DNA from: Nitrospirales bacterium
GTDB lineage: Bacteria > Nitrospirota > Nitrospiria > Nitrospirales > Nitrospiraceae
Reading direction: 5' to 3'
NCBI GenBank assembly: GCA_965223605.1
Contig: CBDCXA010000005.1
Coordinates: 254,473-318,472, forward strand
Length of the DNA stretch: 64,000 nucleotides
Below the pieces are notes generated by a model. It ran no database searches. It was given only the letters and a program-made list of their open reading frames with translations, and was not told the DNA's origin. The position numbers and the translations under genes are program-made. This document shows positions 11,054 through 25,741 of the stretch, piece after piece (within the stretch, counting starts at the first letter, position 1; each line of letters starts with the position of its first letter).

Positions 11054-11575
11054 ATGAATCGATCTAACCATATAAATTATTTAACGAAGTTGTTATCTGG
11101 TTTCCGGAACAGGTACTCCATCATTCTAAGCGTGGTTATCACGTTCACTCTTCACTTTACCAACCTGCCGGCGAGCATGGGAGGCCTGGTTCAGCTAGGA
11201 GAACACAACAAACAACACCTATTAGGGGTAGACTCCCAAAACTTAGGTAACTCTACGAGTATTGAGTCTATTCCAGATGAACCGGTCGAGTACGACCCCA
11301 AGGAAGTCAAGTCATATTATGACTGGAGAAATGACATGTTTTTCAGAGAGTTTGATTTAGAAGGTATGGGACGTGTAGATTTTATGACAGCCAGACGGAC
11401 TTACAAGGTATCACTAAACGAATATGGTAATTCCGTTGTGATGACCATGCCCTATCCTCTTTTCTATTGGGTTGATTCTAATAAGAATGGTAAATTCGAG
11501 CCTAAACTTGGTGAAATGTGGTCCGATCCCGAGGAAGACGGTGTCAATGGGAATGAAAATCTTTATGGTATTTAG
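11054..11575 (+). CDS. hypothetical protein (N-terminal hydrophobic segment)
   Basis: 173-aa ORF with one predicted N-terminal helix. No family recognised. Confidence 0.45.
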   Translation: MNRSNHINYLTKLLSGFRNRYSIILSVVITFTLHFTNLPASMGGLVQLGEHNKQHLLGVDSQNLGNSTSIESIPDEPVEYDPKEVKSYYDWRNDMFFREFDLEGMGRVDFMTARRTYKVSLNEYGNSVVMTMPYPLFYWVDSNKNGKFEPKLGEMWSDPEEDGVNGNENLYGI

Positions 11576-12076: not shown

Positions 12077-12466
12077 GTGCTCATGGAAGGCACAGAACTC
12101 GCCTTTGAATATTTGTCGAGATATTCCGGCATTTTACTCTTTATTGCGATCGCCGGATTATTTGGAGTGGGCACGTTGCTCATCAGCTATTTCGTGCAAC
12201 CCAAATTTCCGGAAGCTGAAAAATTATCAACGTACGAATGTGGCAGTGAACCTTTTTCAGATGCCAGAATGCCCTTTCCCGTTCGGTATTATATTTTTGC
12301 CATGATGTTTGTGATTTTTGATATCGAGGTAATTTTTCTCTATCCCTGGGCCATTTCATTTAAAAAGATCGGCATTATTGGGTTAGTTGAAATGATGATT
12401 TTCATAGGACTTTTTGTGGTGGCTTATGTTTATGCTTGGCGCAAAGGGGCGTTGGAATGGGACTAA
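12077..12466 (+). CDS. nuoA: NADH-quinone oxidoreductase subunit A
   Basis: YECGSEPF and FDIEVIFLYPWA motifs. The start is GTG at 12077 or ATG at 12083. Confidence 0.9.
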   Translation: MLMEGTELAFEYLSRYSGILLFIAIAGLFGVGTLLISYFVQPKFPEAEKLSTYECGSEPFSDARMPFPVRYYIFAMMFVIFDIEVIFLYPWAISFKKIGIIGLVEMMIFIGLFVVAYVYAWRKGALEWD

Positions 12467-12556
12467 GGTCTGCCCTGTAGATGTTGGAGACGTTACCTGA
12501 TTGGCGATAGAGGCAGGTGAAAGTCTTACGGACCGTCATTTTTTAAAGGATAACCC

Positions 12557-13072
12557 ATGGGATTAATACAAATAGGGTCACATGAGAAAGACGGTGATGT
12601 GGATGTCATTACGACTACCATAGAAAAGGCCGTGAACTGGGCTCGGAAAGGGTCATTATGGCCGATGACCTTTGGACTCGCCTGTTGCGCCATTGAGATG
12701 ATCGCGGCCGTCTCATCTCGTTACGACATGGATCGATACGGTGCCGGCGTCTTTCGTGCCTCTCCCCGACAATCAGATTTAATGATTGTGGCAGGCACCG
12801 TCTGCCGGCGCATGGCACCTGTTATTCGGAAAATCTATGACCAAATGCCCGAACCCAAATATGTCATTGCCATGGGATCCTGTGCGACGTCCGGGAATAT
12901 CTATGACAGCTATAGTGTCGTGCAAGGCGTCGATCGTTTTGTGCCGGTGGATATCTATGTACCTGGATGTCCCCCCACTCCGGAAGCTTTATTTGACGGC
13001 ATCTTGAAGTTGCAAGACCGTATCATGGAAAAACGCGTATTTTTAAAGCAACCCAAGGAAGTACGAGCGTAA
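12557..13072 (+). CDS. nuoB: NADH-quinone oxidoreductase subunit B
   Basis: [17 protein letters not shown] and PGCPP cluster-N2 motifs. Confidence 0.95.
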
Positions 13073-13078
13073 ATATTC

Positions 13079-13576
13079 ATGCATCTCTTAGCCGAACGCA
13101 TCCAGCAGGAATTTCCGCAAGCCTTCATCAAGGCAGTGGAATGGCGCGGTGATGTCGCGGTAACTGTTCAACGTGACGCACTCCATGATGTCGCTACCTT
13201 TCTTCGTCGTGATTCAGAAATGGACTTCGATTATATCGTCCACGTCAGTTCAGTAGATTGGCCCGATGACGAAGAACGATTTGAGGTCGTTTATGAATTG
13301 TATTCTATACGGCACAAACAACGAATTCGGCTCAAGGCGCGCGTCCCGGAACAAGATTGTACCGTCACCTCTCTGACCGATCTGTGGAAGGGTGCGGATT
13401 ACATGGAGCGGGAAGTCTATGACATGATGGGCATCCGCTTTTTGAACCATCCCGATCTTCGACGAATTCTTATGCCTGATGATTATGATGAAGGCTATCC
13501 CTTACGCAAAGACTTTCCGCTAAGAGGCAAGGGGTGGCGGGATACCTTCGACTTTCTTGATGAACCCAGTCAGTAA
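13079..13576 (+). CDS. nuoC: NADH-quinone oxidoreductase subunit C
   Basis: 165 aa. ERFEVVYELYS and EREVYDMMGIRF are typical of the 30-kDa subunit. Confidence 0.9.
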   Translation: MHLLAERIQQEFPQAFIKAVEWRGDVAVTVQRDALHDVATFLRRDSEMDFDYIVHVSSVDWPDDEERFEVVYELYSIRHKQRIRLKARVPEQDCTVTSLTDLWKGADYMEREVYDMMGIRFLNHPDLRRILMPDDYDEGYPLRKDFPLRGKGWRDTFDFLDEPSQ

Positions 13577-13619
13577 CAAACAGGCGGGCTACCTGACCGT
13601 GGAGGCAGAATAGAACAGC

Positions 13620-14882
13620 ATGGAACGCGGACCAAAACCCTTTGAAGACCAGCGGACGACGATATATAAAGTCGATCCCGAGAATCCAGAGAGTCCGACC
13701 CTTCCGACTCTCCGCACGGAAGAACTTCTCCTCAACATGGGGCCACAACATCCGAGTACCCACGGTGTGCTCAAGGTCGTGCTCGAGCTGGAAGGGGAAC
13801 GATTGGTCAAATCCACCCCAGTCTTGGGGTTTCTACATCGGGGAGTGGAGAAATTAGCGGAAGATGGAACCTACCACCAGTTTATTCCCCACACCGATCG
13901 TCTCGATTATGTCTGCGCCATGTACAACAACTTTGCCTATTGTCGAGCCGTTGAAAAACTCATGGACATCACAGTCCCTGAACGCGCTGAATACTTACGC
14001 ACCATCGTCGCCGAAATACAACGGATCATCGGTCATCAATTCTGGTTAGGGACACAAGCCTTGGATATCGGGGCTATGACGGTTTTTTTCTATACCTTCC
14101 GAGATCGAGAAATTTTACTCGATTGGTTCGACGAATTATGCGGGGCACGACTGACCACAAGTTGGTATCGAATCGGCGGGGTCGAACGTGACTTCACTCC
14201 CTCTCTCCTTTCCAAAGTTCGGGCCTTTATCGATTATTTGCCAAGTAAGATTGACGAATATCAGGTCTTTTTAGAGAAAAATAGAATTTGGTTAGGACGA
14301 ACCAAGGGGGTGGCGGTGATTTCGGCAGAAGATGCCTTAAGCTTTGGCTTAAGTGGTCCAACACTTCGAGGCTCTGGCGTTGATTATGATTTACGGAAAT
14401 ACGAACCCTATAGCGCCTATGGCAAATGTGAATTCAGCGTGCCGATTGGGAAAAACGGAGATACCTATGACCGCTATTGGATTCGCATTATGGAGATGTA
14501 CGAGAGCGTCAAAATCATTCGTCAATGCCTAGAACAAATGCCGGAGGAAGGGCCAATCATGGCCGACGTGCCTAGTGTGACGTTCCCGCCAAAAGAACGC
14601 GTCTTCACAAACCTAGAAAGTATGATTCAACAATTTAAGCTCTTTTCCCAAGGATTTGATGCCCCACCTGGGGAAATTTATTGCGGCACCGAAGCCCACA
14701 AGGGAGAACTCGGGTTTTATATTGTGAGCACCGGAGGCGGAAAACCCTATCGATTAAAAATCCGAGCCCCTTCCTTTATACATATGGGAGCTTTTGACCA
14801 TATGGCGCGTGGCTATATGATTGCCGATGCCGTCACGATTTTCGGAACGTACGATATTGTGATGGGAGAATGTGACCGGTAG
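13620..14882 (+). CDS. nuoD: NADH-quinone oxidoreductase subunit D
   Basis: 420 aa. LNMGPQHPSTHGVL and the C-terminal DIVMGECDR. Confidence 0.95.
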   Translation: MERGPKPFEDQRTTIYKVDPENPESPTLPTLRTEELLLNMGPQHPSTHGVLKVVLELEGERLVKSTPVLGFLHRGVEKLAEDGTYHQFIPHTDRLDYVCAMYNNFAYCRAVEKLMDITVPERAEYLRTIVAEIQRIIGHQFWLGTQALDIGAMTVFFYTFRDREILLDWFDELCGARLTTSWYRIGGVERDFTPSLLSKVRAFIDYLPSKIDEYQVFLEKNRIWLGRTKGVAVISAEDALSFGLSGPTLRGSGVDYDLRKYEPYSAYGKCEFSVPIGKNGDTYDRYWIRIMEMYESVKIIRQCLEQMPEEGPIMADVPSVTFPPKERVFTNLESMIQQFKLFSQGFDAPPGEIYCGTEAHKGELGFYIVSTGGGKPYRLKIRAPSFIHMGAFDHMARGYMIADAVTIFGTYDIVMGECDR

Positions 14883-14921
14883 GATGACCGACTCACGTAT
14901 TTTGTTGTTGAGGTTAGACTT

Positions 14922-17636
14922 ATGGCATTGAAACCCGTGACGACCCCCGATGCGGAGGTCGCCTCCATTGAGTTATCGATTGATGGACAAACTCTGTCTG
15001 CGAAAGACGGAGTGTCGCTCTATGACGTAATCTCTACGACCGGAAAAGTCGTCCCGGCCATGTGTTACCACTACACCTTCGATCCCTTTGGTTCCTGTGG
15101 TATGTGTCTCGTCATGGTCGAAGGGAAAAAGGCACCGGTTCGCTCATGCACAGCTAAAGCGACCGCCGGGATGGTGGTCCGCACCGAAGGCGATGACTTG
15201 TTTGCTGCCAGAAAAAAGGCCGTTGAAAAACACCTTTCCGTCCATCCCCTTGATTGCCCAGTCTGTGATGCCGATGGCCATTGTGAACTCCAAGACATGG
15301 CGTTTAAACATGAGGTCACCAATTTAGCCAATGCCAAACAGAAATTAATTCCTGAAGATACCAGAAGTCTCGTTCTTGACTTCAACATGAACCGCTGTAT
15401 CGCCTGCGCGGAATGTATCAATATTTGTAAAGACGTCTTGATGATCGATGCCCTGCAATTTATGAAAAAGGGCGGGTTTAACCAAGTCGTCCCCAAAGGC
15501 GATCAACCTCTCTCCTGCGAATTTTGCGGCGACTGCCTGGCGGTCTGCCCTGTCGGAGCGATTACGAATAAATATTCCAAGTACCTCTATAAACCTTGGC
15601 AGCTGAAGAAAACGACCACCACCTGTAACTATTGTGGGGACGGCTGTCAGATGATCTTGGAAACCAAAGATACCGAAGTGGTACGAGTCACTTCCACACT
15701 GTCCTGGAAAAATAAGTGGGGAGAGCGGACGGACACCGCCCAAGGGCACGGTGGCATTTGTGTCCGCGGCCGATTTGGATTTCAACACCTGGATAGTTCC
15801 GCACGACTCACCCAACCCCTGAAACGCGAAAAAGGTGAACTGGTTGAGGTCGCCTGGCTTGACGCAGTCCAAAGTATTATTGATCAATTGACCGCCATAA
15901 AAGAGACCCATGGCCCGCAGGCCATAGCGGGACTGATCACCGCTCGTTGTACCAACGAAGAACTCTATCTTTTCCAAAAATTCATGCGGGTGGCCATCGG
16001 CAGTAATCATATTGATAGTAGTGCACGCTATGGCCATATGAATTTTGTCCATGCCATGCAGAAAGCCATTGGCATCGGACGCTCTCAGAATAGTTGGGAA
16101 GATATTACCAAGGCCAAAGCCATTCTCCTGGTCGGTTCAAATATTACGGAGACCAATCCCCTGACAGCCGTCCGTATCAAGGAAGCCATTCGCGTCTATA
16201 AAGCTCAGGTGATGGTCGTCGACTCGGCCCAGTCCCCCATCTCTCAACTGGCCTCACACCCCATCCTCGTCCGCCCGGGAACGGAATCGCTCTTGGTGCA
16301 AGGCCTAGTGAAAACCACCATTGAACAAGACCTGGTTGACCGGGAGGTGGTGAATAAACATCCTGAGGCTTTTGCCTCCCTGCAAAAGGCTGTGGGACAA
16401 ATCTCGTGGGACAGCATTACCAACATGACCGGAATCAACGAACAGGTTCTCAAAGAAACTGCTGCTATTTTTGCTGAAGCCCCTCAAGCAGTCATTATCT
16501 GCGGAGAAGGTATCGTTCGCCAGAGAGAGGGATTTGACCATGTGTTGGATCTTGTGGATCTGGCCTGGATTACCGGAAAGCTCGGAAAACCAGGATGCGG
16601 CATTAATACCGTTACGGAAGAAGTGAACGAACAGGGTGCGGTGGATATGGGCGTGTCTCCGGAATTTCTTCCGGGTCAAGTGCGCTTTAACGACCCCGAA
16701 GCCAGAAATAAATTCACGCGGGGGTGGGACACCGAACTTCCACCGGTAAACAGTGGCGCCTCCCTGATGAAAATACTCCAGCAATGTCAGACGGGAGAAA
16801 TCAAAGCCCTGTATCTCATTGGGGAAAATCCCCTGGCCACACTCCCCAGTTCCTTTAATGTCCAAGCTGCCCTTGAAGGAGTCGAGCTCCTGATCTGCCA
16901 GGATCCCTTTCTCACGGAAACCGGGAAGCTGGCACATTATGTCCTTCCGGCCTGTACCTATGCGGAAAAGAACGGGACCTTTACTAACTTAGAAGGGAAG
17001 GTTTTACGTATTCGTGAATCGATGGATCCCCTAGGGGAGAGCCTGCCGGATTGGCACATCCTGACGGCCATAACCAATGGGTTAGGGTACCCCTTGGAAT
17101 ATGAATCATCCCAAGATATTCAGAATGAAATCATGAAAGTCCTTCCGGGATACTATAACCTGGGACAACCCCGCGCGGTGACTCCAAATCCAAACCCGTA
17201 TCTCTCGAATGGGTATAGCCGGGATGTCGCCGTTCGCTATCACGCAACAGGGGAACGTCTGAAATCGGAACTTTCACAAGCGACGGGCAGTGAAGAATTT
17301 CGTCTCGTGATGGGCCAGGAACTCTATCATTCCGGAAAAATGTCAACACAAGCCTCGGGCTTGATAAAAATTACTTCCCACGTGGGTAGTTTGCATATGA
17401 ATGTCGAAGACTTAGAGCGGTTAGGCCTACAGGAGGGTCAGAAGGTGCGCGTGACAACTGAGAAAGGATCTCTGGTCCTTCCCGTCACTCCCAACCTCTC
17501 CATGCGTCCAGGATTATGTTTTTTCCCAGAACATTTCAATACCCCTCCGGTCAAAGATCTCATGCCGCTGGAAGTGGATTCCAAAACGGGTGTCCCCTAT
17601 TTCAAGTTGGGCACCGTGTCTCTGGAGAAGGCCTGA
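14922..17636 (+). CDS. nuoG: NADH-quinone oxidoreductase subunit G-like (2Fe-2S, 4Fe-4S clusters plus molybdopterin-oxidoreductase fold)
   Basis: 904 aa. 2Fe-2S Cys pattern (CYHY..CGMC..SC), HPLDCPVCDADGHCELQD (N5-type), CIACAEC..C and CEFCGDCLAVCP, then CNYCGDGC..C and RCTNEELY of the molybdopterin domain. Confidence 0.9.
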   Translation: MALKPVTTPDAEVASIELSIDGQTLSAKDGVSLYDVISTTGKVVPAMCYHYTFDPFGSCGMCLVMVEGKKAPVRSCTAKATAGMVVRTEGDDLFAARKKAVEKHLSVHPLDCPVCDADGHCELQDMAFKHEVTNLANAKQKLIPEDTRSLVLDFNMNRCIACAECINICKDVLMIDALQFMKKGGFNQVVPKGDQPLSCEFCGDCLAVCPVGAITNKYSKYLYKPWQLKKTTTTCNYCGDGCQMILETKDTEVVRVTSTLSWKNKWGERTDTAQGHGGICVRGRFGFQHLDSSARLTQPLKREKGELVEVAWLDAVQSIIDQLTAIKETHGPQAIAGLITARCTNEELYLFQKFMRVAIGSNHIDSSARYGHMNFVHAMQKAIGIGRSQNSWEDITKAKAILLVGSNITETNPLTAVRIKEAIRVYKAQVMVVDSAQSPISQLASHPILVRPGTESLLVQGLVKTTIEQDLVDREVVNKHPEAFASLQKAVGQISWDSITNMTGINEQVLKETAAIFAEAPQAVIICGEGIVRQREGFDHVLDLVDLAWITGKLGKPGCGINTVTEEVNEQGAVDMGVSPEFLPGQVRFNDPEARNKFTRGWDTELPPVNSGASLMKILQQCQTGEIKALYLIGENPLATLPSSFNVQAALEGVELLICQDPFLTETGKLAHYVLPACTYAEKNGTFTNLEGKVLRIRESMDPLGESLPDWHILTAITNGLGYPLEYESSQDIQNEIMKVLPGYYNLGQPRAVTPNPNPYLSNGYSRDVAVRYHATGERLKSELSQATGSEEFRLVMGQELYHSGKMSTQASGLIKITSHVGSLHMNVEDLERLGLQEGQKVRVTTEKGSLVLPVTPNLSMRPGLCFFPEHFNTPPVKDLMPLEVDSKTGVPYFKLGTVSLEKA

Positions 17637-17660
17637 AAAAAGGGAAGGTAGGAAATTCTA

Positions 17661-18224
17661 ATGGGCGATGGCGTGAAAAAAATACTCGATGCGATGATGT
17701 TCCGCGAAATTTGGGATGCCATGAAGGTGACCTTCAAGCATATGTTCTATCGCCCCATTACCTTCCAATACCCGAGAGAAGAACGAACCCTACCCGACAC
17801 ACACCGAGGAGCCTTGGGTCTCCTTCGATACGACGATGGCGTGGAACGTTGTGTGGGTTGCGACCTTTGCGAAGTGGCCTGTCCGTCGCATTGTATCAAG
17901 GTCATTAGTGAGGAAGATCAATCGCTGCCGCTTCAACGCTACGCGAAAGAGTTTTATATCGATATTACCAAATGCGTATTCTGCGGATATTGTGTGGAAG
18001 CCTGTCCCGTCAATGCGCTCGCTATGACCAAAATGTATGAATATTCAACCCACGATAAACGTACCTTACTCTTTGACAAGGCCCGACTCTACGATATTGG
18101 CGAACGACATTTAGACGATGCGAAAAAATACCTGTACGCCCATAATCAAGAAAAAGATGAACAAGCAAGCCATGACTATCGCTACTTTTTCCCACAATCC
18201 ATCAGCAAAAGTAAGTCCACGTAA
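17661..18224 (+). CDS. nuoI: NADH-quinone oxidoreductase subunit I
   Basis: Two ferredoxin-type motifs: CVGCDLCEVACP and CVFCGYCVEACP. Confidence 0.95.
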   Translation: MGDGVKKILDAMMFREIWDAMKVTFKHMFYRPITFQYPREERTLPDTHRGALGLLRYDDGVERCVGCDLCEVACPSHCIKVISEEDQSLPLQRYAKEFYIDITKCVFCGYCVEACPVNALAMTKMYEYSTHDKRTLLFDKARLYDIGERHLDDAKKYLYAHNQEKDEQASHDYRYFFPQSISKSKST

Positions 18225-18230
18225 AACGCT

Positions 18231-18764
18231 ATGATGCCTGTATTTTTTGCCTATTTTTCCCTCATGAGTATGATCACGGGTGTGCTCACCGTGGGCCTGA
18301 AAAATCCGGTCCATTGCGGCATTGCCTTGCTTGCACTCCTTTTACATGTTTCGGGACTCTTCTTAATGCTGAACGCCGAATTTATTTGGGCCGTTCAAGT
18401 CATCGTGTATGCCGGTGCCATTCTCGTGTTGTACCTCTTCGTCCTCATGCTGCTGAATTTAAAAACCGTCGAAGGCTATTTTCATAAACATGTGGTCTAT
18501 TTTTTGATCCCCGCCTGTCTCGGGACCTTGTATATCGTGGGACTCTTGGTGATGACCCCCTTTGAAGGCGAGAAGGGGACCACAACAGCAGACATGGTTG
18601 TTTCAAGTGGCAGCACCTTTTCCATCGGCATAAAAATGTTTAGTGAATATTTGCTCCAGTTTGAAATCGTCGGTGTCTTCCTTCTGGGAGCCATCATTGG
18701 AGCGATTGTACTGGCAAAGACCCCCCAGCAAACGGACGAACCGGTAGAACGGACAAAGCCATAA
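18231..18764 (+). CDS. nuoJ: NADH-quinone oxidoreductase subunit J
   Basis: 177-aa membrane protein. NAEFIWAVQVIVYAGAILVLYLFVLMLL is typical of NuoJ. Confidence 0.9.
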   Translation: MMPVFFAYFSLMSMITGVLTVGLKNPVHCGIALLALLLHVSGLFLMLNAEFIWAVQVIVYAGAILVLYLFVLMLLNLKTVEGYFHKHVVYFLIPACLGTLYIVGLLVMTPFEGEKGTTTADMVVSSGSTFSIGIKMFSEYLLQFEIVGVFLLGAIIGAIVLAKTPQQTDEPVERTKP

Positions 18765-18768
18765 CTCC

Positions 18769-19071
18769 ATGATTCCTCTTTCAGCCTATATCGCAGTCAG
18801 TACAGTGCTTTTTGCGACAGGACTGGTCGGTGTGTTGATACGTCGAAATTTCATTATCGTGCTGATGTCAGTTGAAATTATGCTGAATGCCGCCAATATC
18901 AACCTGGTGGCCTTTTCCTACTACCTCGACTCGATGGCCGGACAAATTGTGGCTCTTTTTGTCATTGCGATCGCGGCGGGGGAAGCCGCTGTCGGATTGG
19001 CCATTATTATTGTGGTGTTCAGAGGAAAAATATCCACCAATGTGGATGAAATGAATTTTTTGAAGTGGTAA
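18769..19071 (+). CDS. nuoK: NADH-quinone oxidoreductase subunit K
   Basis: 100 aa with the SVEIMLNAANINLVAF and AAGEAAVGLAI motifs. Confidence 0.95.
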   Translation: MIPLSAYIAVSTVLFATGLVGVLIRRNFIIVLMSVEIMLNAANINLVAFSYYLDSMAGQIVALFVIAIAAGEAAVGLAIIIVVFRGKISTNVDEMNFLKW

Positions 19072-19072
19072 C

Positions 19073-21067
19073 GTGATCGATACACTTATTCTGCTAATTC
19101 CGCTGTTTCCGCTGGTCGCAGTCTTACTGAACGGGCTGTTGGGCAGCCGGTATTCCCAAGAGTTTGCTCATCGACTCGCCTGGGGATCGGTGGGACTGTC
19201 GTTTCTCTGTACCCTGGCCGTCTTTGCCGACACACTGGCCAATGGAATACCGAGAGAAGTGGTCGCCTATCGATGGATTTTCGGCACCGACTTCACCATC
19301 AACCTCGCTTTTTTGATTGATCCACTCACCTGCATCATGCTCCTGGTTATTACAGGGGTCGGATTTCTCATCCATCTCTATTCCGTAGGGTATATGCACG
19401 GGGAAGAAGGATTTACACGATTCTTCACCTATATGAACCTCTTTATGGTCTCGATGCTCCTGCTGGTTATGGGGAATAACTACCTGGTCCTTTTTATTGG
19501 GTGGGAGGGAGTTGGCCTTTGTTCTTATTTATTGATCGGGTTTTATTTTGACCGTGTCTCGGCAGCCAAAGCTGCTACCAAAGCATTTGTGGTCAACCGA
19601 ATTGGAGATGCCGGATTTTTACTGGCTATTTTTCTGGTATTCGTCAATTTCGGAACCCTGGACTATACCGAGGTGATGGCCCGTGCGGGAGAGTTATCTC
19701 CGACCATGGCCTCATGGATCGCCCTCTGTCTCCTCATCGGGGCGGTGGGTAAATCTGCACAGATTCCTCTCTATACCTGGCTCCCCGATGCAATGGAAGG
19801 CCCGACACCTGTCAGTGCTCTTATCCATGCCGCGACAATGGTAACTGCAGGGGTCTATATGATCGTCCGAAACCATGTGATCTTCGACATGGCTCCTATG
19901 GTTATGACGGCTGTGGCCTGGATTGGAGGACTCACGGCCTTATTTGCGGCCACCATCGGTCTCGTTCAAAACGATATTAAACGCGTCTTGGCTTACTCCA
20001 CCGTGAGCCAATTGGGGTATATGTTTCTAGCCTGTGGAATCGGGGCCTATACCGCCGCGGTGTTTCACCTCATGACCCATGCCTTTTTTAAAGCACTCCT
20101 CTTTCTGTCAGCCGGGTCTGTGATCCATGCACTTGGGGGTGAACAAGACATAAGAAAAATGGGGGGACTCAAGGATAAAATTCCCTGGACCTTCTGGGTC
20201 TTTCTGATTGGCACATTGGCTATCGCGGGTATTCCTCCCCTGGCAGGATTTTGGAGTAAAGATGAGATTTTGGCCCACGCCTTTATCAACCATCACTATG
20301 AATTGTATGCACTGGGAGCCATTGCGGCATTGCTGACATCATTTTATATGTTCCGATTGACGTATCTGACCTTCTTTGGGGAGTCTCGAGTCGAAGCCGA
20401 GACGGCCGCACATATTCATGAATCACCCATGGTGATGGTTGGACCACTTGTCGTGTTAGCGGGCCTCTCGTTTTTAGGGGGATTTCCGGGAGTTCCACCT
20501 GAAAACGGATGGTTTCATCACTTTCTCCATCCGGTCACCGCAGTAGCTGGAGCAGAGCACCACGTGAGTCCTCTCACCATTATTGGGTTAATGGCGGTGG
20601 CCACCGCAATCGCATTGATTGGTTGGGCCGTGGCGCATTATTTCTACAGTATTCGGCCGAAGACTGGAGACCAATTGGCCACCCGATTCTCTGGAGCCTA
20701 CGACACACTCCTCAATAAGTATTATGTGGATGAAGCCTATGATGCAGCTATTGTAGAACCCACTAAAATGATTGGGCAGGCCTGGGATTGGTTTGATCGG
20801 ACCGTCATCGATGGAGCCGTCAAAGCGGTTGCCTCCTTCACCCAGAGTAGCTCCAACATTACCGTCTGGATTGAAAATCATGTCGTGTATGCCGGCCTGA
20901 ATCTTGTCGGCTATGGGAATCATCTCGTGGCGCGGTCCTGGCGTAAACTGCAATCCGGCATGGTCCATCATTATGCTGCGATCATTGTCGGCGGGTTATT
21001 TGTGTTGGTGCATATTGTGTTTGTTCTCTGGACCGGCTCCTCCTGGTTTGGAGCCATGATTCGGTAG
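19073..21067 (+). CDS. nuoL: NADH-quinone oxidoreductase subunit L (long form, 664 aa)
   Basis: GTG start 2 nt after the nuoK stop. WEGVGLCSYLLIGF and GKSAQIPLYTWLPDAMEGPTPVSALIHAATMV motifs, plus a long C-terminal region. Confidence 0.9.
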   Translation: MIDTLILLIPLFPLVAVLLNGLLGSRYSQEFAHRLAWGSVGLSFLCTLAVFADTLANGIPREVVAYRWIFGTDFTINLAFLIDPLTCIMLLVITGVGFLIHLYSVGYMHGEEGFTRFFTYMNLFMVSMLLLVMGNNYLVLFIGWEGVGLCSYLLIGFYFDRVSAAKAATKAFVVNRIGDAGFLLAIFLVFVNFGTLDYTEVMARAGELSPTMASWIALCLLIGAVGKSAQIPLYTWLPDAMEGPTPVSALIHAATMVTAGVYMIVRNHVIFDMAPMVMTAVAWIGGLTALFAATIGLVQNDIKRVLAYSTVSQLGYMFLACGIGAYTAAVFHLMTHAFFKALLFLSAGSVIHALGGEQDIRKMGGLKDKIPWTFWVFLIGTLAIAGIPPLAGFWSKDEILAHAFINHHYELYALGAIAALLTSFYMFRLTYLTFFGESRVEAETAAHIHESPMVMVGPLVVLAGLSFLGGFPGVPPENGWFHHFLHPVTAVAGAEHHVSPLTIIGLMAVATAIALIGWAVAHYFYSIRPKTGDQLATRFSGAYDTLLNKYYVDEAYDAAIVEPTKMIGQAWDWFDRTVIDGAVKAVASFTQSSSNITVWIENHVVYAGLNLVGYGNHLVARSWRKLQSGMVHHYAAIIVGGLFVLVHIVFVLWTGSSWFGAMIR

Positions 21068-21094
21068 TGATGAAAATTTCCAAGATGTAATCGT

Positions 21095-22669
21095 ATGCTC
21101 GAAGAACTGACATTTGGATTTCCCTTATTAAGCCTCCTGCTCTTCCTTCCGTTAGGTGGAGCGGTCGTGCTGTGGATTATTCAAGAAGAAGATACCGCCA
21201 AACATATTGCGTTAGGTGTCTGCGCCCTTGAATTTTTCTTATCGGTAGCCCTCCTGTGGTACTTCATTCCAAACTCGGCTGCCATGCAATTCACCGAGCA
21301 TATTGATTGGATACCGCCTCTTGGAATTAGTTACCACCTGGGTGTTGATGGTATCAGTGTCTTGTTTGTCGCACTCACGGCCTTTCTTAACCTCCTGATC
21401 GTCTTGAACTCTTGGGACAGCATTCGACACCAGGTCAAGCAATACCTCATGGCCCTGCTCGCGTTGCAGACCACCACCATCGGAATTTTTGTCAGTCTCG
21501 ATTTGATCCTGTTCTTTGTGTTTTGGGAACTCATGCTGATTCCAAGTTACTTCCTCATTAAGCTTTGGGGAACAGGATCAGGGCGACAATATGCCGCGCT
21601 CAAGTTTGTGCTCTATACCCTGCTCGGCAGCGTCTTTATGTTGGTGGGAATTGCTCTATTAAACTTAAATTACCATGAGTGGGCAGTCACACATGGGGTG
21701 GAACCATCCTATTCATTTGACCTTCTAGACCTTCTGACCGTACCAATCGCCACGAGCCAACAGATACTTATCTTTTGGCTGATCTTCCTCGGCCTGGCTT
21801 TCAAGGCCCCAATGTTCCCCTTTCATACCTGGCTGCCGGATGCCTTGATGGAAGGTCCCATTGGAATGGCCGTGGTCCTGGCCGGAGTGAAATTGGGCAC
21901 CTATGGATTTATGCGACTGAGCCTCCCGTTACTTCCAGATGCCTCCCAACATGGGACCGTCGTCCTCATTATGATGTGCCTGGCCCTGATCGCAATTCTT
22001 TATGGAGCCTTTATTGCGATTATTCAACCGGACTTCCGACGATTACTAGCCTATAGCAGCATCAGCCATTTGGGATTTGTGGTCCTTGGTTTATTTGCCT
22101 TGAACTTTCAAGGCTTGCAGGGCAGTCTCCTGACCATGATTAATCTTGGCTTTAGCACGGCCGGCCTATTTTTTATTGCCGGGTTCCTCTATACCCGCCA
22201 ACACAGTACCGATATCTCCTCATTTGGAGGAATGGCCAAATACACCCCATTGCTCGCCAGTTTTTTATTGATCGTAGGTTTGGCCTCCATCGGGTTACCG
22301 GGCACAAATGGATTTGTTGGAGAATTCCTGATATTGCTGGGCGCATTTAAATCTTGGTGGGTCTATGGCGCCATCGCGGTACTCGGGGTTATTTTTAGTG
22401 CGGCATATTTTCTCTGGTATTTTGAGCGATCGATGTTTGGGCCCTTGGGAAAACACATTTCCCACACCATACAGGATCTCCGAGCCGCTGAGATGACGAT
22501 CGTCCTCTCCCTCACCATTATGATTTTTTGGATCGGGCTTTATCCTTCACCGTTTTTGCGAATTATGAACGGGTCGGTGCAAGCATTAGTGGAGCGCTTG
22601 GAACATGGAGCCACGCAGGGACTCGCCGTCGTCAAACCCAGACACGAACAATTGAGGGAAGATGGCTGA
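21095..22669 (+). CDS. nuoM: NADH-quinone oxidoreductase subunit M (copy 1)
   Basis: 524 aa. FWELMLIPSYFLIKLWG, KAPMFPFHTWLPDA and LAYSSISHLGFV motifs. Confidence 0.9.
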   Translation: MLEELTFGFPLLSLLLFLPLGGAVVLWIIQEEDTAKHIALGVCALEFFLSVALLWYFIPNSAAMQFTEHIDWIPPLGISYHLGVDGISVLFVALTAFLNLLIVLNSWDSIRHQVKQYLMALLALQTTTIGIFVSLDLILFFVFWELMLIPSYFLIKLWGTGSGRQYAALKFVLYTLLGSVFMLVGIALLNLNYHEWAVTHGVEPSYSFDLLDLLTVPIATSQQILIFWLIFLGLAFKAPMFPFHTWLPDALMEGPIGMAVVLAGVKLGTYGFMRLSLPLLPDASQHGTVVLIMMCLALIAILYGAFIAIIQPDFRRLLAYSSISHLGFVVLGLFALNFQGLQGSLLTMINLGFSTAGLFFIAGFLYTRQHSTDISSFGGMAKYTPLLASFLLIVGLASIGLPGTNGFVGEFLILLGAFKSWWVYGAIAVLGVIFSAAYFLWYFERSMFGPLGKHISHTIQDLRAAEMTIVLSLTIMIFWIGLYPSPFLRIMNGSVQALVERLEHGATQGLAVVKPRHEQLREDG

Positions 22670-24257
22670 ATACACACTCCTGTATATTTTATTCGCACCC
22701 TTTGTCGGATCGATTGCGCTGATCTTCGTCTCGAACCGCCAACACCTCCTCGTGCGATGGATTGCGGCCGCGTCGGCATTTATTCCCTTGGTGGCCTCTT
22801 TCTATTTATTTTATGCCTATGACCCCATCCAAGGCGGGTATCAATTTATACAACGCTACGAATGGTCTCCAGAACTCGGGATTTCCTTTTACCTAGGCGT
22901 CGATGGAATTGGGACTCCGCTCGTGCTCGCGTCCTGTATTCTCCTTTTTGCGGGAATTTTTATTTCTTGGCATGTCAAAGATCGCGCCAAAGAATTTTAT
23001 ATCTTTATTTTGATTTTGGCGGCCGCCACGATTGGCGTGTTCATGTCCCTGGACCTTTTCTTCCTGTATTTCTTCTATGAAATGTCAGTCCTTCCGATGT
23101 ACCTCTTGCTGGGGATGTGGGGAAGCCATACCAAGAGCTATTTAGAGATGACAGACCCAGAGGGACTGAAACAGCGTGACTCGGTGAGTTTCATCTTCAA
23201 CTTTACGAAAAACAGTAAAGAATACGCAGCCATGAAACTCGTTCTCTTCCTCTCAGCAGGGGCCGTGGTCGCCCTCATGGGCATTCTCCTTATTTATAAA
23301 GGTTCTGGCCTCTATACCTTTGACATTCTGGTCTTGAGAGAACAGGCGCATTTTTCAGAACCCATGGCCACTCTCATTTGGCTGCTCATCTTTTTTGGAT
23401 TTGCCTCTATCGCTCCGATTTGGCCACTCCATTCCTGGTCGCCTGTCGGACATGCGGCAGCCCCGGCAGCCACGAGTATGTTACATGCCGGCGTGCTCAT
23501 GAAGTTAGGCCATTTCTCGATCATTCGAGTGGCCTTTGAAATTCTTCCGGATGCCACTAGAGAACTCATGCCTATCGCCGCCATTTTGTGTGTGTTCAGC
23601 ATTATCTATGGTGGGTTTGTGGCCTTCAATGCCCGAGACACTAAGTATGTGATTGGCTATTCCAGTTCTTCGCATATGGGATATGTCTTTCTCGGGATGG
23701 CCGCGTTGGACTATATGAGCTTAACCGGGGCGGTGCTGTACATGTTCGCCCATGCCTTGGCCACCGGCATGTTGTTCGCGATGGCAGGGTGGGTGTACGA
23801 CCAAACCCATACCAGGGATATTCCGTCGCTCGGGGGACTCTCAAACCGTATGCCTTTTATTGCCGGCTGCTTTATTATTGCCTGCATGGCCTCTGTCGGA
23901 ATGCCCGGCACGGTGAATTTTATTGCCGAAGTGATGATCATTGTCGGAAGTTGGAATAAATATCCTTTTCAGGTTCTCGTCGCCGTCATTGGAATCGTGC
24001 TCACAATGGCCTATCTCTTTAAGATGATGCGTGGGGTTTTCTACGGGCCCATGGACCAGCAATATAGCCATACCCATGATGCGGTAGGATGGGTCGATCG
24101 TGCCCCTCTCTTTATTATGATTGTCTGTAGTATTGGGTACGGACTGTTCCCCCTACACTTTCTCAAAGTCATTCAAAGCGGAGTTGATCCCCTGTTGGCA
24201 CGGATCATCGAAGTCGCGCCTCTCGTCTCTCAACATACGGGAGGCCTGGTACCCTAG
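22662..24257 (+). CDS. nuoM: second NuoM-like antiporter-like subunit (copy 2, with loop insertion)
   Basis: 531 aa. It overlaps copy 1 by 8 nt. FYEMSVLPMYLLLGMWG, PLHSWSPVGHAAAP and IGYSSSSHMGYVF are the same motif set as copy 1 but diverged. An extra segment of about 25-30 aa follows the MWG motif. Confidence 0.85.
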   Translation: MAEYTLLYILFAPFVGSIALIFVSNRQHLLVRWIAAASAFIPLVASFYLFYAYDPIQGGYQFIQRYEWSPELGISFYLGVDGIGTPLVLASCILLFAGIFISWHVKDRAKEFYIFILILAAATIGVFMSLDLFFLYFFYEMSVLPMYLLLGMWGSHTKSYLEMTDPEGLKQRDSVSFIFNFTKNSKEYAAMKLVLFLSAGAVVALMGILLIYKGSGLYTFDILVLREQAHFSEPMATLIWLLIFFGFASIAPIWPLHSWSPVGHAAAPAATSMLHAGVLMKLGHFSIIRVAFEILPDATRELMPIAAILCVFSIIYGGFVAFNARDTKYVIGYSSSSHMGYVFLGMAALDYMSLTGAVLYMFAHALATGMLFAMAGWVYDQTHTRDIPSLGGLSNRMPFIAGCFIIACMASVGMPGTVNFIAEVMIIVGSWNKYPFQVLVAVIGIVLTMAYLFKMMRGVFYGPMDQQYSHTHDAVGWVDRAPLFIMIVCSIGYGLFPLHFLKVIQSGVDPLLARIIEVAPLVSQHTGGLVP

Positions 24258-24259
24258 CC

Positions 24260-25741
24260 ATGACCTTTGACCTGACCCTATCCAGCGCAGACTTGTTTCT
24301 GCTCCTTCCTGAGATTTTTCTCACGTTGTGGCTTTGCATTGTTCTCGCGGTTGACTTCTCCATTCCACGCTTCCCCCAAAAGCAATTAGCCTATCTAAGC
24401 GTGGCGGGTCTTGTCGGAACCCTGGCTTGCTTGATGTGGTTTATTCAATCGGGCACGCAAGGCACGCTCTTCCACGATATGTTTGTGGTCGATGGGATCG
24501 CCATATTTTTTAAATTATTTATTGTCGCGTCCACAGCCCTGGTCATTTTAGCCTCTATCGATTATGTGAACCGCTTTAAATTTTTTAAGGGGGAATATTA
24601 TTTTCTGGTCCTCATGTCCGCCCTGGGTATGATGTTCATGGCCTCCGCCAATGACCTGCTCTCCCTGTTTGTCACGTTGGAGTTTGCCACCTTTGGCTTC
24701 TATGTTCTGGTGGCCTATTTACGTGATGACTCCGCCTCCAATGAAGCCGGCATTAAGTTTTTTATTTTGGGAATTTTTGCGGCGGCGTTACTCGCCTATG
24801 GAATCAGTCTGGTGTATGGCGGCACAGGAAAACTGGTCTTCTCAGATATGAACATCACGACCCCCACGCCAGCCCTAACCATCGGGTTTTTGCTCATATT
24901 TGCGGCTCTTGGATTTAAAATCGGAACTGTTCCATTCCATTCGTGGATCCCTGATACCTATCACGGAGCCCCAACTCCCGTGACCACCTTTCTCTCCATT
25001 GTTCCCAAAGCCGCTGCCTTTGCAATTTTGATCCGTATGTTTTTTGTCGCCTTGGCCTCATTCAAACCTGCCTGGGTGCTCTTGTTAGCAGGCGCGTCGA
25101 TTTTGTCTATGACCTATGGGAATATCGTCGCGATTGCCCAAAAAAATATTAAACGGTTGCTGGCCTATTCAGGTATTGCGCAAATTGGAAATGTACTCAT
25201 CGGCTTAGCGGCTGGAACGAAGATGGGAAGCGATGCGATCTTGTTTTATCTCCTCACCTATATGTTTGCCAACCTTGGAGCCTTTGCCATCGTCATCGCC
25301 GTCAGTCAAATAATTCGAAGTGATGAAATTGAGGATTACAACGGCCTGAATCGACGCTCTCCCTTTTTGGCATTCTCGATGCTGATCTTTTTACTTTCTC
25401 TCGCCGGCGTGCCTCCCTTAGCTGGCTTTATTGGAAAACTGTATATTTTTGTCGCCGCCATCAAGGAAGAATTGTACGTGCTCTTGACGGTGGGGCTGAT
25501 CAATATCGTGATTTCGATGTATTATTATTTAATCGTCGTCAAAAAAATGTACATCAATGAGCCAGATAATCCTTCAAAACTGACAGTTTCCGGTCCCATG
25601 AAACTGGTGGTGTACATTAGTTTAGCCGGAACCTTACTTCTCGGAATTTATCCCAAACCCTTTATCGAGTGGATTGTTTCCACCACGATGCTCTTTTCGA
25701 ATCTCGCCGGCCCCACTGCCTCACTTCCCGGACTAGGCTGA
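24260..25741 (+). CDS. nuoN: NADH-quinone oxidoreductase subunit N
   Basis: 493 aa. LEFATFGFYVLVAY, KIGTVPFHSWIPDTYHGAPTPV and LAYSGIAQIG motifs. Confidence 0.9.
   Translation: MTFDLTLSSADLFLLLPEIFLTLWLCIVLAVDFSIPRFPQKQLAYLSVAGLVGTLACLMWFIQSGTQGTLFHDMFVVDGIAIFFKLFIVASTALVILASIDYVNRFKFFKGEYYFLVLMSALGMMFMASANDLLSLFVTLEFATFGFYVLVAYLRDDSASNEAGIKFFILGIFAAALLAYGISLVYGGTGKLVFSDMNITTPTPALTIGFLLIFAALGFKIGTVPFHSWIPDTYHGAPTPVTTFLSIVPKAAAFAILIRMFFVALASFKPAWVLLLAGASILSMTYGNIVAIAQKNIKRLLAYSGIAQIGNVLIGLAAGTKMGSDAILFYLLTYMFANLGAFAIVIAVSQIIRSDEIEDYNGLNRRSPFLAFSMLIFLLSLAGVPPLAGFIGKLYIFVAAIKEELYVLLTVGLINIVISMYYYLIVVKKMYINEPDNPSKLTVSGPMKLVVYISLAGTLLLGIYPKPFIEWIVSTTMLFSNLAGPTASLPGLG

Follow-up and report, generated by a model that had tools for sequence, protein, structure and literature searches.

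Several members of the complex I family, among them cyanobacterial and chloroplast NDH-1, other 11-subunit forms and the Campylobacter jejuni type, have no working NuoEF NADH/FMN site, and ferredoxin or flavodoxin is assumed or proposed as their partner. The same applies to NUO-2 of Nitrospina gracilis and Kuenenia (PMC3144371; PMC3578206). In Nitrospira, a different arrangement has been described as the clade-3 "2M" complex I by Mundinger 2019 (PMC6606698), Bayer 2021 (PMC8115632), and a 2025 comparison of Nitrospirales (PMC12342949). This cluster has two NuoM and an "enlarged nuoG homolog" (PMC6606698) and is without nuoE, nuoF, and nuoH; it was found in all cultivated Nitrospiraceae beside a canonical operon that holds nuoH (PMC6606698, PMC8115632, PMC12342949). 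The canonical operon has a fused nuoCD, whereas separate nuoC and nuoD genes set the 2M cluster apart, and the two co-occur in most Nitrospirales genomes (PMC12342949). As cited in PMC6606698, Chadwick et al. 2018 framed the fourth pump as permitting a fifth proton per cycle. The gene arrangement analyzed here is thus already published, and its detection is a rediscovery of this documented Nitrospira hallmark (PMC6606698, PMC8115632, PMC12342949).

Gene content and class of the cluster

The window, i.e., the whole 64-kb stretch of DNA that was analyzed, contains a 12-gene cluster on the + strand (12077-25741) with the order nuoA-B-C-D-G-I-J-K-L-M-M'-N. All 12 genes of the open reading frame (ORF) list were assigned by Pfam and NCBIfam, with Pfam placing A, B, C, D, I, J, K, L, M, M', and N each as expected:

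12077..12466, + strand: nuoA, 129 aa (Pfam Oxidored_q4, E 2.6e-39)
12557..13072, + strand: nuoB, 171 aa, carrier of cluster N2 (Pfam Oxidored_q6)
13079..13576, + strand: nuoC, 165 aa, separate from nuoD (Pfam Complex1_30kDa)
13620..14882, + strand: nuoD, 420 aa, quinone site intact (NCBIfam NuoD, 545 bits vs a cut-off of 459)
14883..14921, + strand: nuoD-nuoG spacer, 39 nt, the canonical place of nuoE and nuoF (ORF list)
14922..17636, + strand: long nuoG, 904 aa (Pfam domains, Fe-S ligand sets, NJ tree)
17637..17660, + strand: nuoG-nuoI spacer, 24 nt, the canonical place of nuoH (ORF list)
17661..18224, + strand: nuoI, 187 aa, clusters N6a and N6b (NCBIfam NuoI, score above the cut-off)
18231..18764, + strand: nuoJ (Pfam Oxidored_q3)
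18769..19071, + strand: nuoK (Pfam Oxidored_q2)
19073..21067, + strand: nuoL, 664 aa, lengthened (alignments to E. coli NuoL and canonical NuoL)
21095..22669, + strand: nuoM, first copy, 524 aa (NCBIfam NDH_I_M, 537 bits)
22662..24257, + strand: nuoM, second copy, 531 aa, an extra antiporter-like subunit (NCBIfam NDH_I_M, 434 bits)
24260..25741, + strand: nuoN, 493 aa (NCBIfam NDH_I_N, 427 bits)

All 12 ORFs are intact and 66–93% identical to their orthologues (B 93%, D 91%, K 89%), the value for NuoB being a median across Nitrospiraceae. The G+C content of the window is ~49%, and scanning the operon for promoters and terminators yielded no excess of matches over shuffled sequence.

Both defining features of the 2M type are present, namely a second nuoM gene within the cluster and an insertion in the lateral amphipathic helix of NuoL (28 residues, for ~26 aa in the 2M definition); the earlier note on this DNA had omitted both. 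The clade-3 signature of Mundinger 2019, in which nuoE, nuoF, and nuoH are missing and nuoG is enlarged, was found in the window and in 80 relatives. That the cluster is orthologous to and syntenic with CI_1 of N. moscoviensis (NITMOv2_0156-0167) is reflected in G identity, gene order, and flanking genes: CI_1, like the N. marina cluster, has identical gene content and order, unfused nuoC and nuoD, and a lengthened NuoL, while its enlarged nuoG product (P0082) is 71% identical to the window G over 100% of its length, with no structural difference. The window organism is nevertheless divergent, its G being at most 75% identical to all known sequences except for one relative (88%). Unlike the canonical 14-subunit NDH-1, the cluster does not encode NuoE, NuoF, or NuoH, and unlike the Campylobacterota type, it has neither nuoH nor two non-homologous genes between nuoD and nuoG; Campylobacter has two substitute genes at a position that spans just 39 nt in the window. 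The other variants with an altered NADH module (NDH-1 and NUO-2) also retain nuoH, 11-subunit forms differ further in being without G as well, and Nitrospina NUO-2 has kept a NuoF that is modified and carries additional Fe-S clusters. Taken together, the cluster is a Nitrospira-type 2M complex I (Chadwick et al. 2018, clade 3), orthologous to CI_1, and we consider it probable that it operates in proton-motive-force-driven reverse electron transport, passing electrons from quinol on to ferredoxin, with a NuoH supplied in trans.

The closest canonical counterparts are 14-gene operons from Nitrospiria and other bacteria that have a long NuoG (L086, L087, L089, L090, L094, and L097), whose quinone module and membrane subunits are the same as in the window, and whose NuoG has the same domains and the same degenerate motif (37–41% identity). 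These operons differ from the window in that G is preceded by nuoE-nuoF and followed by nuoH. They mostly encode three pumps, although there are four antiporter-like genes in L090 and five in L094. The nearest canonical relatives, from the same class Nitrospiria, have the order E-F-G-H, and the cluster probably originated from a 14-gene operon by losing E, F, and H and duplicating M.

Conservation of the gene order without nuoE, nuoF, and nuoH

The earlier note had proposed that nuoE, nuoF, and nuoH are missing from both the operon and the window, with no room for them between nuoD, nuoG, and nuoI, and our searches agree. Six-frame tblastn of the window found none of the three with E. coli queries (best E 0.25), nor with closer NuoE, NuoF, and NuoH queries, taken from the four canonical operons that encode the nearest canonical NuoG relatives (best E 0.05). 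Likewise, Pfam scans of every window ORF of ≥150 aa returned no match to PF00146, PF01512, or PF01257, and together these searches rule out a frameshifted or hidden nuoH, nuoE, or nuoF in the window. At 39 nt and 24 nt, the D-G and G-I gaps leave no space for a gene in either. Between tblastn matches in relatives, the corresponding distances had a median of 84 nt and a maximum of 457 nt for D-G (73 relatives), and a median of 63 nt and a maximum of 132 nt for G-I (77 relatives).

In a synteny comparison of the kind suggested in the earlier note, the same gene order was observed in all 80 species-level Nitrospiraceae genomes retrieved. The order A-B-C-D-G-I-J-K-L-M-M-N was complete in 54 of these genomes, the other loci being shorter stretches in the same order, and NuoE, NuoF, or NuoH had no match within 10 kb of the cluster in any of the 80. 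One of the incomplete loci has an extra M2-like match. In an independent metagenome contig from ENA (L001), the gene between D and I encodes an identical G protein, and the D-G-I junctions are the same; nuoD is split in this contig, which has 4× coverage. Around the cluster, priA, an OmpA-like gene, and a CHASE3 kinase are conserved, with synteny in 43–58 loci. As a candidate for an unknown conserved neighbor replacing NuoH, an upstream ORF without a Pfam match (11054-11575) was rejected, being kept in 3 loci only.

Misassembly, which the earlier note had named as a possible refutation, is excluded by the independent contig and the 80 syntenic genomes. More generally, we give virtually no credence to the gene order being an assembly or annotation artefact or the trace of a decaying operon: the order is identical in 80 genomes and an independent contig, the 12 ORFs are intact with 66–93% identity to orthologues, and the orthologous cluster of N. 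moscoviensis is transcribed. Nothing was seen in favor of an artefact or decay, the split nuoD of L001 being the sole oddity. We conclude that nuoE, nuoF, and nuoH are truly missing from the cluster, which is under purifying selection and syntenic across Nitrospiraceae.

A core without E, F, and H is also found in further Nitrospiria, including Complex_I_3 of 'Candidatus Manganitrophus', where it comprises A-B-C-D-G-I-J-K (PMC9040806). The G proteins of this type fall in the same clade as that of the window (100% bootstrap, 48–50% identity) and share its ARYGH motif. As in the window, these clusters encode two NuoM plus NuoN, but they have two MrpD-like subunits and a small ORF instead of NuoL, and thus five pumps rather than four.

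As a further counter-case, the earlier note had considered that this arrangement might always co-occur with a single nuoEFH set encoded elsewhere and serving a different complex. Such co-occurrence is largely what the literature describes, since the 2M cluster accompanies the canonical nuoCD-fused operon with nuoE, nuoF, and nuoH. The weight of the finding is lowered because the arrangement is published and this co-occurrence largely reported.

The large subunit as a long NuoG

The 904-aa protein encoded between nuoD and nuoI contains the Pfam domains Fer2_4, NADH-G_4Fe-4S_3, Fer4_Nqo3, Molybdop_Fe4S4, Molybdopterin, and Molydop_binding. Residues 48-280 (nt 15063-15761) contain five Fe-S ligand sets: C48/C59/C62/C76, H108/C112/C115/C121, C159/C162/C165/C209, C199/C202/C205/C169, and C235/C238/C242/C280. 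All 20 ligands (N1b, His-ligated N5, N4, the second ferredoxin-type cluster, and N7) are invariant across 120 homologues, confirming the full-length NuoG with Cys/His patterns that had been noticed in the earlier note.

Several similarity scores pointed first to a recruited formate dehydrogenase. Against NCBIfam, the Fdh-alpha model scored higher than the NuoG model (478 vs 369 bits), with both scores under their cut-offs. Formate dehydrogenases, FdsA and FdhF, also came out on top in PDB comparisons of sequence and fold: FdsA (R. capsulatus 6TG9; also 9WXB) aligns to G over its full length (E 6e-116 to 7e-120), and the fold of the molybdopterin (Mo) domains matches E. coli FdhF (TM-score 0.76 on target). 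In the AlphaFold model, these Mo domains are well predicted, while residues 1-292 have a pLDDT <50 due to a shallow alignment, and the fold search therefore concerns the C-terminal part only. If G were a catalytic formate dehydrogenase alpha-type molybdo-enzyme, as in JGI annotations, the cluster would be an oxidoreductase from formate or another substrate to quinone, and the full-length Mo-fold domains would be in line with this.

The active-site residues and phylogeny instead led us to reject this first lead. The position of the Mo-ligand Cys/Sec is occupied by Gly371 (nt 16032-16034; Gly in 120/120 homologues), next to a retained His372; that of the catalytic Arg (FdhF R333 / FdsA R587) by Thr565 (nt 16614-16616; Thr in 118/120); and that of the FS0-pterin Lys by Arg282 (Arg in 120/120). 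The ARYG[HY] motif, with its Gly at the Mo-ligand position, is common to these G proteins and canonical NuoG. In an NJ tree, the G proteins from clusters without nuoH, canonical-operon NuoG having the same degenerate motif, and E. coli NuoG form one clade with 100% bootstrap, with Cys-containing formate dehydrogenases falling outside. FdsA belongs to a separate clade, and its partners are FdsB and FdsG, with no membrane arm. The genes for the next-nearest homologues of G (37–41% identity) are flanked by nuoF and nuoH in 14-gene operons, and no Mo-cofactor or fdhD-type gene was found among the window ORFs. A catalytic formate dehydrogenase is thus extremely unlikely. Judging from these residues and relationships, the 904-aa protein is a true long NuoG with a whole Fe-S chain and a molybdopterin-fold domain predicted to be non-catalytic, and the 'formate dehydrogenase' label in public annotations is wrong. 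G also misses the cut-off of NCBIfam TIGR01973 (369 vs 470 bits, the model covering residues 19-717 only), which we take as a limit of a model derived from NuoG proteins that are shorter or further diverged, rather than as exclusion from the family.

Conservation is uneven along the protein, with the N-terminal Fe-S domains being the best conserved part (84–95% identity), and the Mo-fold domains showing 62–68% conservation across the family. A pure scaffold role would not fully explain the latter level.

Four antiporter-like subunits

With two NDH_I_M genes between nuoL and nuoN, the cluster encodes four antiporter-like subunits. The insertion in the lateral HL helix of NuoL spans residues 572-599 (nt 20786-20869) in alignments with E. 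coli NuoL and the canonical NuoL of L086, and is common to Nitrospira orthologues. A similar insertion is also seen in L087, a canonical operon with three pumps. NuoL retains E144, K229, H334, H338, K342, K399, and D400 (E. coli numbering), NuoN the equivalents of E133, K217, K247, and K395, and the first NuoM those of E144, K234, K265, and E407 (60/60 orthologues). The second NuoM retains the equivalents of E144, K265, and E407, while its TM7 lysine (K234) is replaced by Ile250, an isoleucine in 61/61 orthologues. This TM7 lysine is essential in E. coli NuoM. Because the extra NuoM is without it, one more pumped proton is not assured.

Quinone module and a likely trans-encoded NuoH

The residues of the quinone site, clusters N2 and N6a/b, and the E-channel are invariant across 68–78 orthologues. 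These include the NuoA acidic motif FDIEV (68 orthologues), the NuoB ligands CC (44-45), C109, and C138 (68/68), the NuoD HPSTHG (residues 44-49) and Tyr97 in RLDY (71/71), both CxxCxxCxxxCP motifs of NuoI (78/78), and both membrane glutamates of NuoK (74/74). With a canonical quinone module and E-channel, the complex would therefore still need NuoH, which forms the quinone tunnel and joins the two arms. The statement of the earlier note that NuoH is a core subunit not known to be dispensable is upheld by established knowledge, and its two questions, on the electron partner and on the place of nuoH, are well chosen.

An alternative is that the complex works without any NuoH homologue, in a new architecture where other subunits close the quinone pocket or where the partner is not a membrane quinone. 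nuoH is missing from every 2M or five-pump cluster of the lineage examined, which therefore indicates a long-lived, stable loss and no accident. However, the working partners of NuoH (the NuoD His/Tyr, the NuoB N2 ligands, and the acidic residues of NuoA and NuoK) are invariant, no subunit of the cluster has extra membrane segments able to replace eight helices, and an expressed nuoH is present elsewhere in the model species N. moscoviensis. To our knowledge, no member of the complex I family is without a NuoH-like subunit, and we consider a NuoH-free complex very unlikely.

NuoH is instead likely supplied in trans, as the conserved residues suggest. Its simplest source would be the nuoH of the canonical nuoCD-fused operon, whose presence in the window's organism is assumed from relatives. 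In N. moscoviensis, nuoH is confined to the canonical clusters CI_2, which is expressed, and CI_3, which is silent. When NuoH was searched with a Manganitrophaceae query, only Nitrospiria proteins were among the matches listed, with at least 72% identity. More tentatively, and at somewhat below even likelihood, one NuoH from the canonical operon may be built into both the canonical complex I and the four-pump complex, with the bare NuoG surface or the cofactor-less molybdopterin-fold domain acting as a ferredoxin dock. If so, a shared core membrane subunit would tie together the assembly and stoichiometry of both complexes. We know of no precedent for one NuoH shared by two paralogous complexes. 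A canonical Nitrospira NuoH would have to fit NuoA, NuoD, NuoB, NuoI, and NuoJ partners that are distantly related to its own.

Electron partner and direction of transport

The most likely role would be proton-motive-force-driven reverse electron transport with quinol as donor and ferredoxin as acceptor, a mechanism hypothesized in the literature (PMC6606698, PMC8407350, PMC12324825). Proton-motive force entering via four antiporter-like subunits, rather than three, would drive the complex backwards, and electrons from methyl-plastoquinol (~+58 mV; quinone potential measured at +57 to +59 mV, PMC12324825) would climb through N2, N6b, N6a, N5, N4, and N1b. The final acceptor would be ferredoxin, a one-electron, low-potential carrier feeding the reductive TCA cycle. 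It may dock on the NuoG/NuoI surface bared by the missing NuoEF or, alternatively, be linked through a separately encoded, highly expressed NuoF-ferredoxin gene cluster.

The same complex could also obtain its N-module in trans, with the orphan nuoF-ferredoxin cluster or the canonical operon supplying NuoF (and NuoE) that would dock on NuoG; it would then reduce NAD(P)+ or bifurcate instead of passing electrons straight to ferredoxin. The best conserved part of G (84–95% identity) is indeed its N-terminal Fe-S domains, to which NuoEF bind in canonical enzymes. On the other hand, the window holds neither nuoE nor nuoF, nor does either occur up to 10 kb from the cluster in any of the 80 genomes, and the potential of NADH can be reached without a fourth pump, a job that the canonical complex already covers, which makes this scenario unlikely.

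Direction is a separate question, as complex I relatives are reversible. In forward mode, the complex would oxidize reduced ferredoxin or another low-potential donor, derived from H2, formate, or glycogen use, and pump an extra proton, resembling photosynthetic NDH-1 with more pumping. The fifth-proton framing of Chadwick et al., as relayed in PMC6606698, and the alternative low-potential metabolisms of Nitrospira (PMC12324825) are consistent with this mode. However, CI_1 transcripts were at or above the median in pure nitrite oxidation, where electrons must go uphill (PMC6606698), except for nuoK, which was well below the median with a large standard deviation, and Nitrospira has no other known system for reducing ferredoxin (PMC6606698). 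We thus regard a forward-running complex as quite improbable.

Implications for Nitrospira

To the published picture, our analysis adds that G is mislabelled as formate dehydrogenase in annotations, and that both NuoG and the quinone module look functional by their conserved residues; a NuoH is therefore expected in trans. The lysine lost from the extra NuoM calls a simple "one more proton" reading into question, and a complex I encoded without its NuoH poses a real question in bioenergetics. Nitrospira oxidizes nitrite in soils, waters, and treatment plants, and its CO2 fixation via the reductive TCA cycle needs reduced ferredoxin, for which the 2M cluster is the only published candidate reducer.

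A complex I gene cluster without nuoE, nuoF and nuoH

Twelve closely packed genes on the + strand of the window, named by Pfam and NCBIfam, form a complex I cluster in which a NuoG-type protein of 904 aa (hereafter the G protein) is encoded between nuoD and nuoI.

Genes of the complex I cluster (window coordinates, strand, assignment by Pfam and NCBIfam)
12077–12466, +, nuoA
12557–13072, +, nuoB
13079–13576, +, nuoC
13620–14882, +, nuoD
14922–17636, +, NuoG-type protein, 904 aa
17661–18224, +, nuoI
18231–18764, +, nuoJ
18769–19071, +, nuoK
19073–21067, +, nuoL
21095–22669, +, nuoM, first copy
22662–24257, +, nuoM, second copy
24260–25741, +, nuoN

The spacers flanking the G gene measure 39 nt (from nuoD) and 24 nt (to nuoI), and the coordinates of an earlier sequence-only note proved correct, its G start 40 nt past the nuoD stop corresponding to the 39-nt gap. 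That note also held nuoE, nuoF and nuoH to be missing from the operon, and their absence from the whole window was borne out by Pfam scans and by six-frame tblastn with two query sets. Neither E. coli NuoE/F/H (best E = 0.25) nor those of four canonical operons, chosen because their NuoG are the closest canonical relatives of the G protein (best E = 0.05), had a match in the whole window, and no window ORF of ≥150 aa contained an NADHdh, Complex1_51K or 2Fe-2S_thioredx domain, the remaining ORFs of this size being ordinary housekeeping, regulatory, and efflux genes by Pfam. Elsewhere in the window, we observed an IS200-like Y1 transposase (PF01797; 5610–6281, +) located upstream of the operon, with a SpoU methylase on one side and the priA region on the other, a tandem pair of Na+/H+ exchanger genes (PF00999; 1434–4009, +) preceded by response-regulator genes, and a two-domain multicopper oxidase gene adjoining an outer-membrane efflux protein gene (33071–35757, –).

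An assembly artefact could be rejected, since the same junctions around an identical G protein, again between nuoD and nuoI, were found on an independent ENA metagenome contig, and both gene order and flanks are conserved in relatives. In a scan limited to one genome per species, 544 genomes contained relatives, and the best 80 of these, all Nitrospiraceae (69–75% identity), were examined for the locus. The full order A-B-C-D-G-I-J-K-L-M-M-N was visible in 54 of the 80 loci, while the rest displayed partial runs of the same order, one with an extra M2-like match; the gene order had no exception among the best 80 of 544. None of these 80 loci had a NuoE/F/H match within 10 kb of the cluster. 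The flanks (priA, an OmpA-like gene, and a CHASE3 histidine kinase) are syntenic in relatives, and the twelve window proteins share 66–93% identity with their orthologues. On the ENA contig (ctg196650_4x, 4x coverage), nuoD is split into two ORFs of 209 and 231 aa (L001:5995-7258), compared to a single one of 420 aa in the window, probably through a sequencing frameshift in this low-coverage assembly.

The G protein is a NuoG with a degenerate active site

The G protein includes Fer2_4, NADH-G_4Fe-4S_3, Fer4_Nqo3, Molybdop_Fe4S4, Molybdopterin, and Molydop_binding domains (Pfam), along with every Cys/His ligand set previously named from the sequence. Its initial impression was that of a formate dehydrogenase: NCBIfam scores were higher for Fdh-alpha (478 bits) than for NuoG (369 bits), both under cut-off; the top solved-structure matches, extending over the full length, were to NAD-dependent formate dehydrogenases of the FdsA type (E 7e-120 and 6e-116), with the best true NuoG structure spanning residues 8–462 only; and a fold search with the predicted Mo domains also ranked formate dehydrogenases first. 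Orthologues (P0008, P0043, P0048, and others) are labeled "formate dehydrogenase (NADP+) alpha subunit" by JGI and 'molybdopterin-dependent oxidoreductase' by NCBI.

This impression was, however, overturned by active-site residues, the operon context of relatives, and phylogeny. Across 120 homologues, Gly371 replaces the Mo-ligand Cys/Sec (120/120), Thr565 the catalytic Arg (118/120), and Arg282 the Lys beside the first cluster (120/120). When 1.84 billion representatives were searched exhaustively, the closest relatives not of the Nitrospira type (37–41% identity) proved to have the degenerate ARYG[HY] motif in common, and all four with a recovered full operon lie between nuoF and nuoH of a 14-gene operon. 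In a neighbor-joining (NJ) tree, G proteins of E/F/H-less clusters group with the canonical NuoG of these operons and with E. coli NuoG in one clade (100% bootstrap), which excludes Cys-containing formate dehydrogenases. Taken together, these data show that the G protein is a genuine long, slowly evolving NuoG, in agreement with its original label; both database labels overlook that it belongs to complex I as its NuoG and that its active site is degenerate. Conservation across the family reaches 84–95% in the Fe-S domains and 62–68% in the Mo-fold domains. Two long antisense ORFs within nuoG (15345–16052 and 16305–16937, both –), present in 26–41 related loci, are most likely kept through sense-frame conservation, not as genes.

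Relation to known complexes and origin

Such a cluster has already been described by Mundinger et al. and Bayer et al. (PMC6606698, PMC8115632); the observation in the window is confirmed and its earlier interpretation sound, but the feature is already published. In Nitrospira moscoviensis, NITMOv2_0156-0167 has exactly the order of the window, with transcripts on nitrite at or above the median except for nuoK, which is well under it with a large standard deviation; nuoH is confined to two canonical clusters, the expressed CI_2 and the silent CI_3, and a stand-alone nuoF is highly expressed (Table S2 of PMC6606698). A 2025 comparison of Nitrospirales reported this complex (2M type, with two NuoM) in all cultivated Nitrospiraceae and UBA8639 genomes, accompanied by a canonical complex with fused NuoCD (PMC12342949). 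Both 2M-defining features are present in the window, i.e., the second NuoM and a 28-residue lateral-helix insertion in NuoL (compared at 20786–20869). NuoL of a canonical 14-gene operon with three antiporter-like subunits (L087:15034-17007) has an insertion of about the same length, hence the insertion alone is not diagnostic of a fourth pump.

A G relative with 48% identity from another Nitrospiria lineage again lies within A-B-C-D-G-I-J-K. Its family includes 'Ca. Manganitrophus', in which the same run, likewise without E/F/H, is followed by five antiporter-like genes (Complex_I_3, PMC9040806). Manganitrophus-type and Nitrospira G proteins form a single NJ clade with 100% support, and, among canonical NuoG, the nearest one (41% identity) comes from Manganitrophaceae of the same class, in an operon with E, F, and H. 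The simplest history would be a single, early loss of E/F/H from a 14-gene operon in Nitrospiria, together with the acquisition of additional pump subunits. In a marine/hydrothermal Nitrospiria contig (DUAG01000011.1; L094:2799-20805), a complete nuoA-B-(C-D)-E-F-G-H-I-J-K precedes five antiporter-like genes, i.e., extra pumps in this class also coexist with a full NADH module and NuoH.

Predicted function

Across 68–78 orthologues per set, the residues of the NuoD quinone site (HPSTHG plus the RLDY tyrosine), all four cluster N2 ligands of NuoB, both cluster motifs of NuoI, two glutamates of NuoK, and the acidic motif of NuoA are all invariant, and no subunit of the window's cluster has spare membrane helices. 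In established complex I structures, both the quinone tunnel and the beginning of the proton path are built from such residues jointly with NuoH. From these invariant partner residues and the lack of spare helices, we infer that some NuoH joins the 2M complex.

The cluster combines an intact Q-module, an unbroken N2-to-N1b Fe-S chain, and four antiporter-like subunits, without an NADH/FMN module. Following the literature, the complex would most likely run in reverse, with proton-motive force raising electrons from methyl-plastoquinol to ferredoxin, and reduced ferredoxin would feed the reductive TCA cycle. The measured methyl-plastoquinol potential is +57 to +59 mV (PMC12324825). By our own arithmetic from this value and textbook ferredoxin potentials, the energy gap is ~0.5 V per electron, which makes an extra proton input plausible.

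Both NuoM copies retain equivalents of E144, K265, and E407. At the position of the essential TM7 lysine K234 of E. coli NuoM, the first copy retains Lys (60/60 orthologues) and the second has Ile250 (nt 23409–23411; Ile in 61/61). The second copy also has a hydrophilic insertion of ~33 residues (residues 156–188, nt 23127–23225). Judging from the Lys-to-Ile replacement, this extra subunit may not pump in the standard way, which bears on the presumed pumping of a proton by a fourth subunit. Overall, the window contributes one further, somewhat divergent member of the 2M type, and the biochemical question behind this cluster is a worthwhile one.
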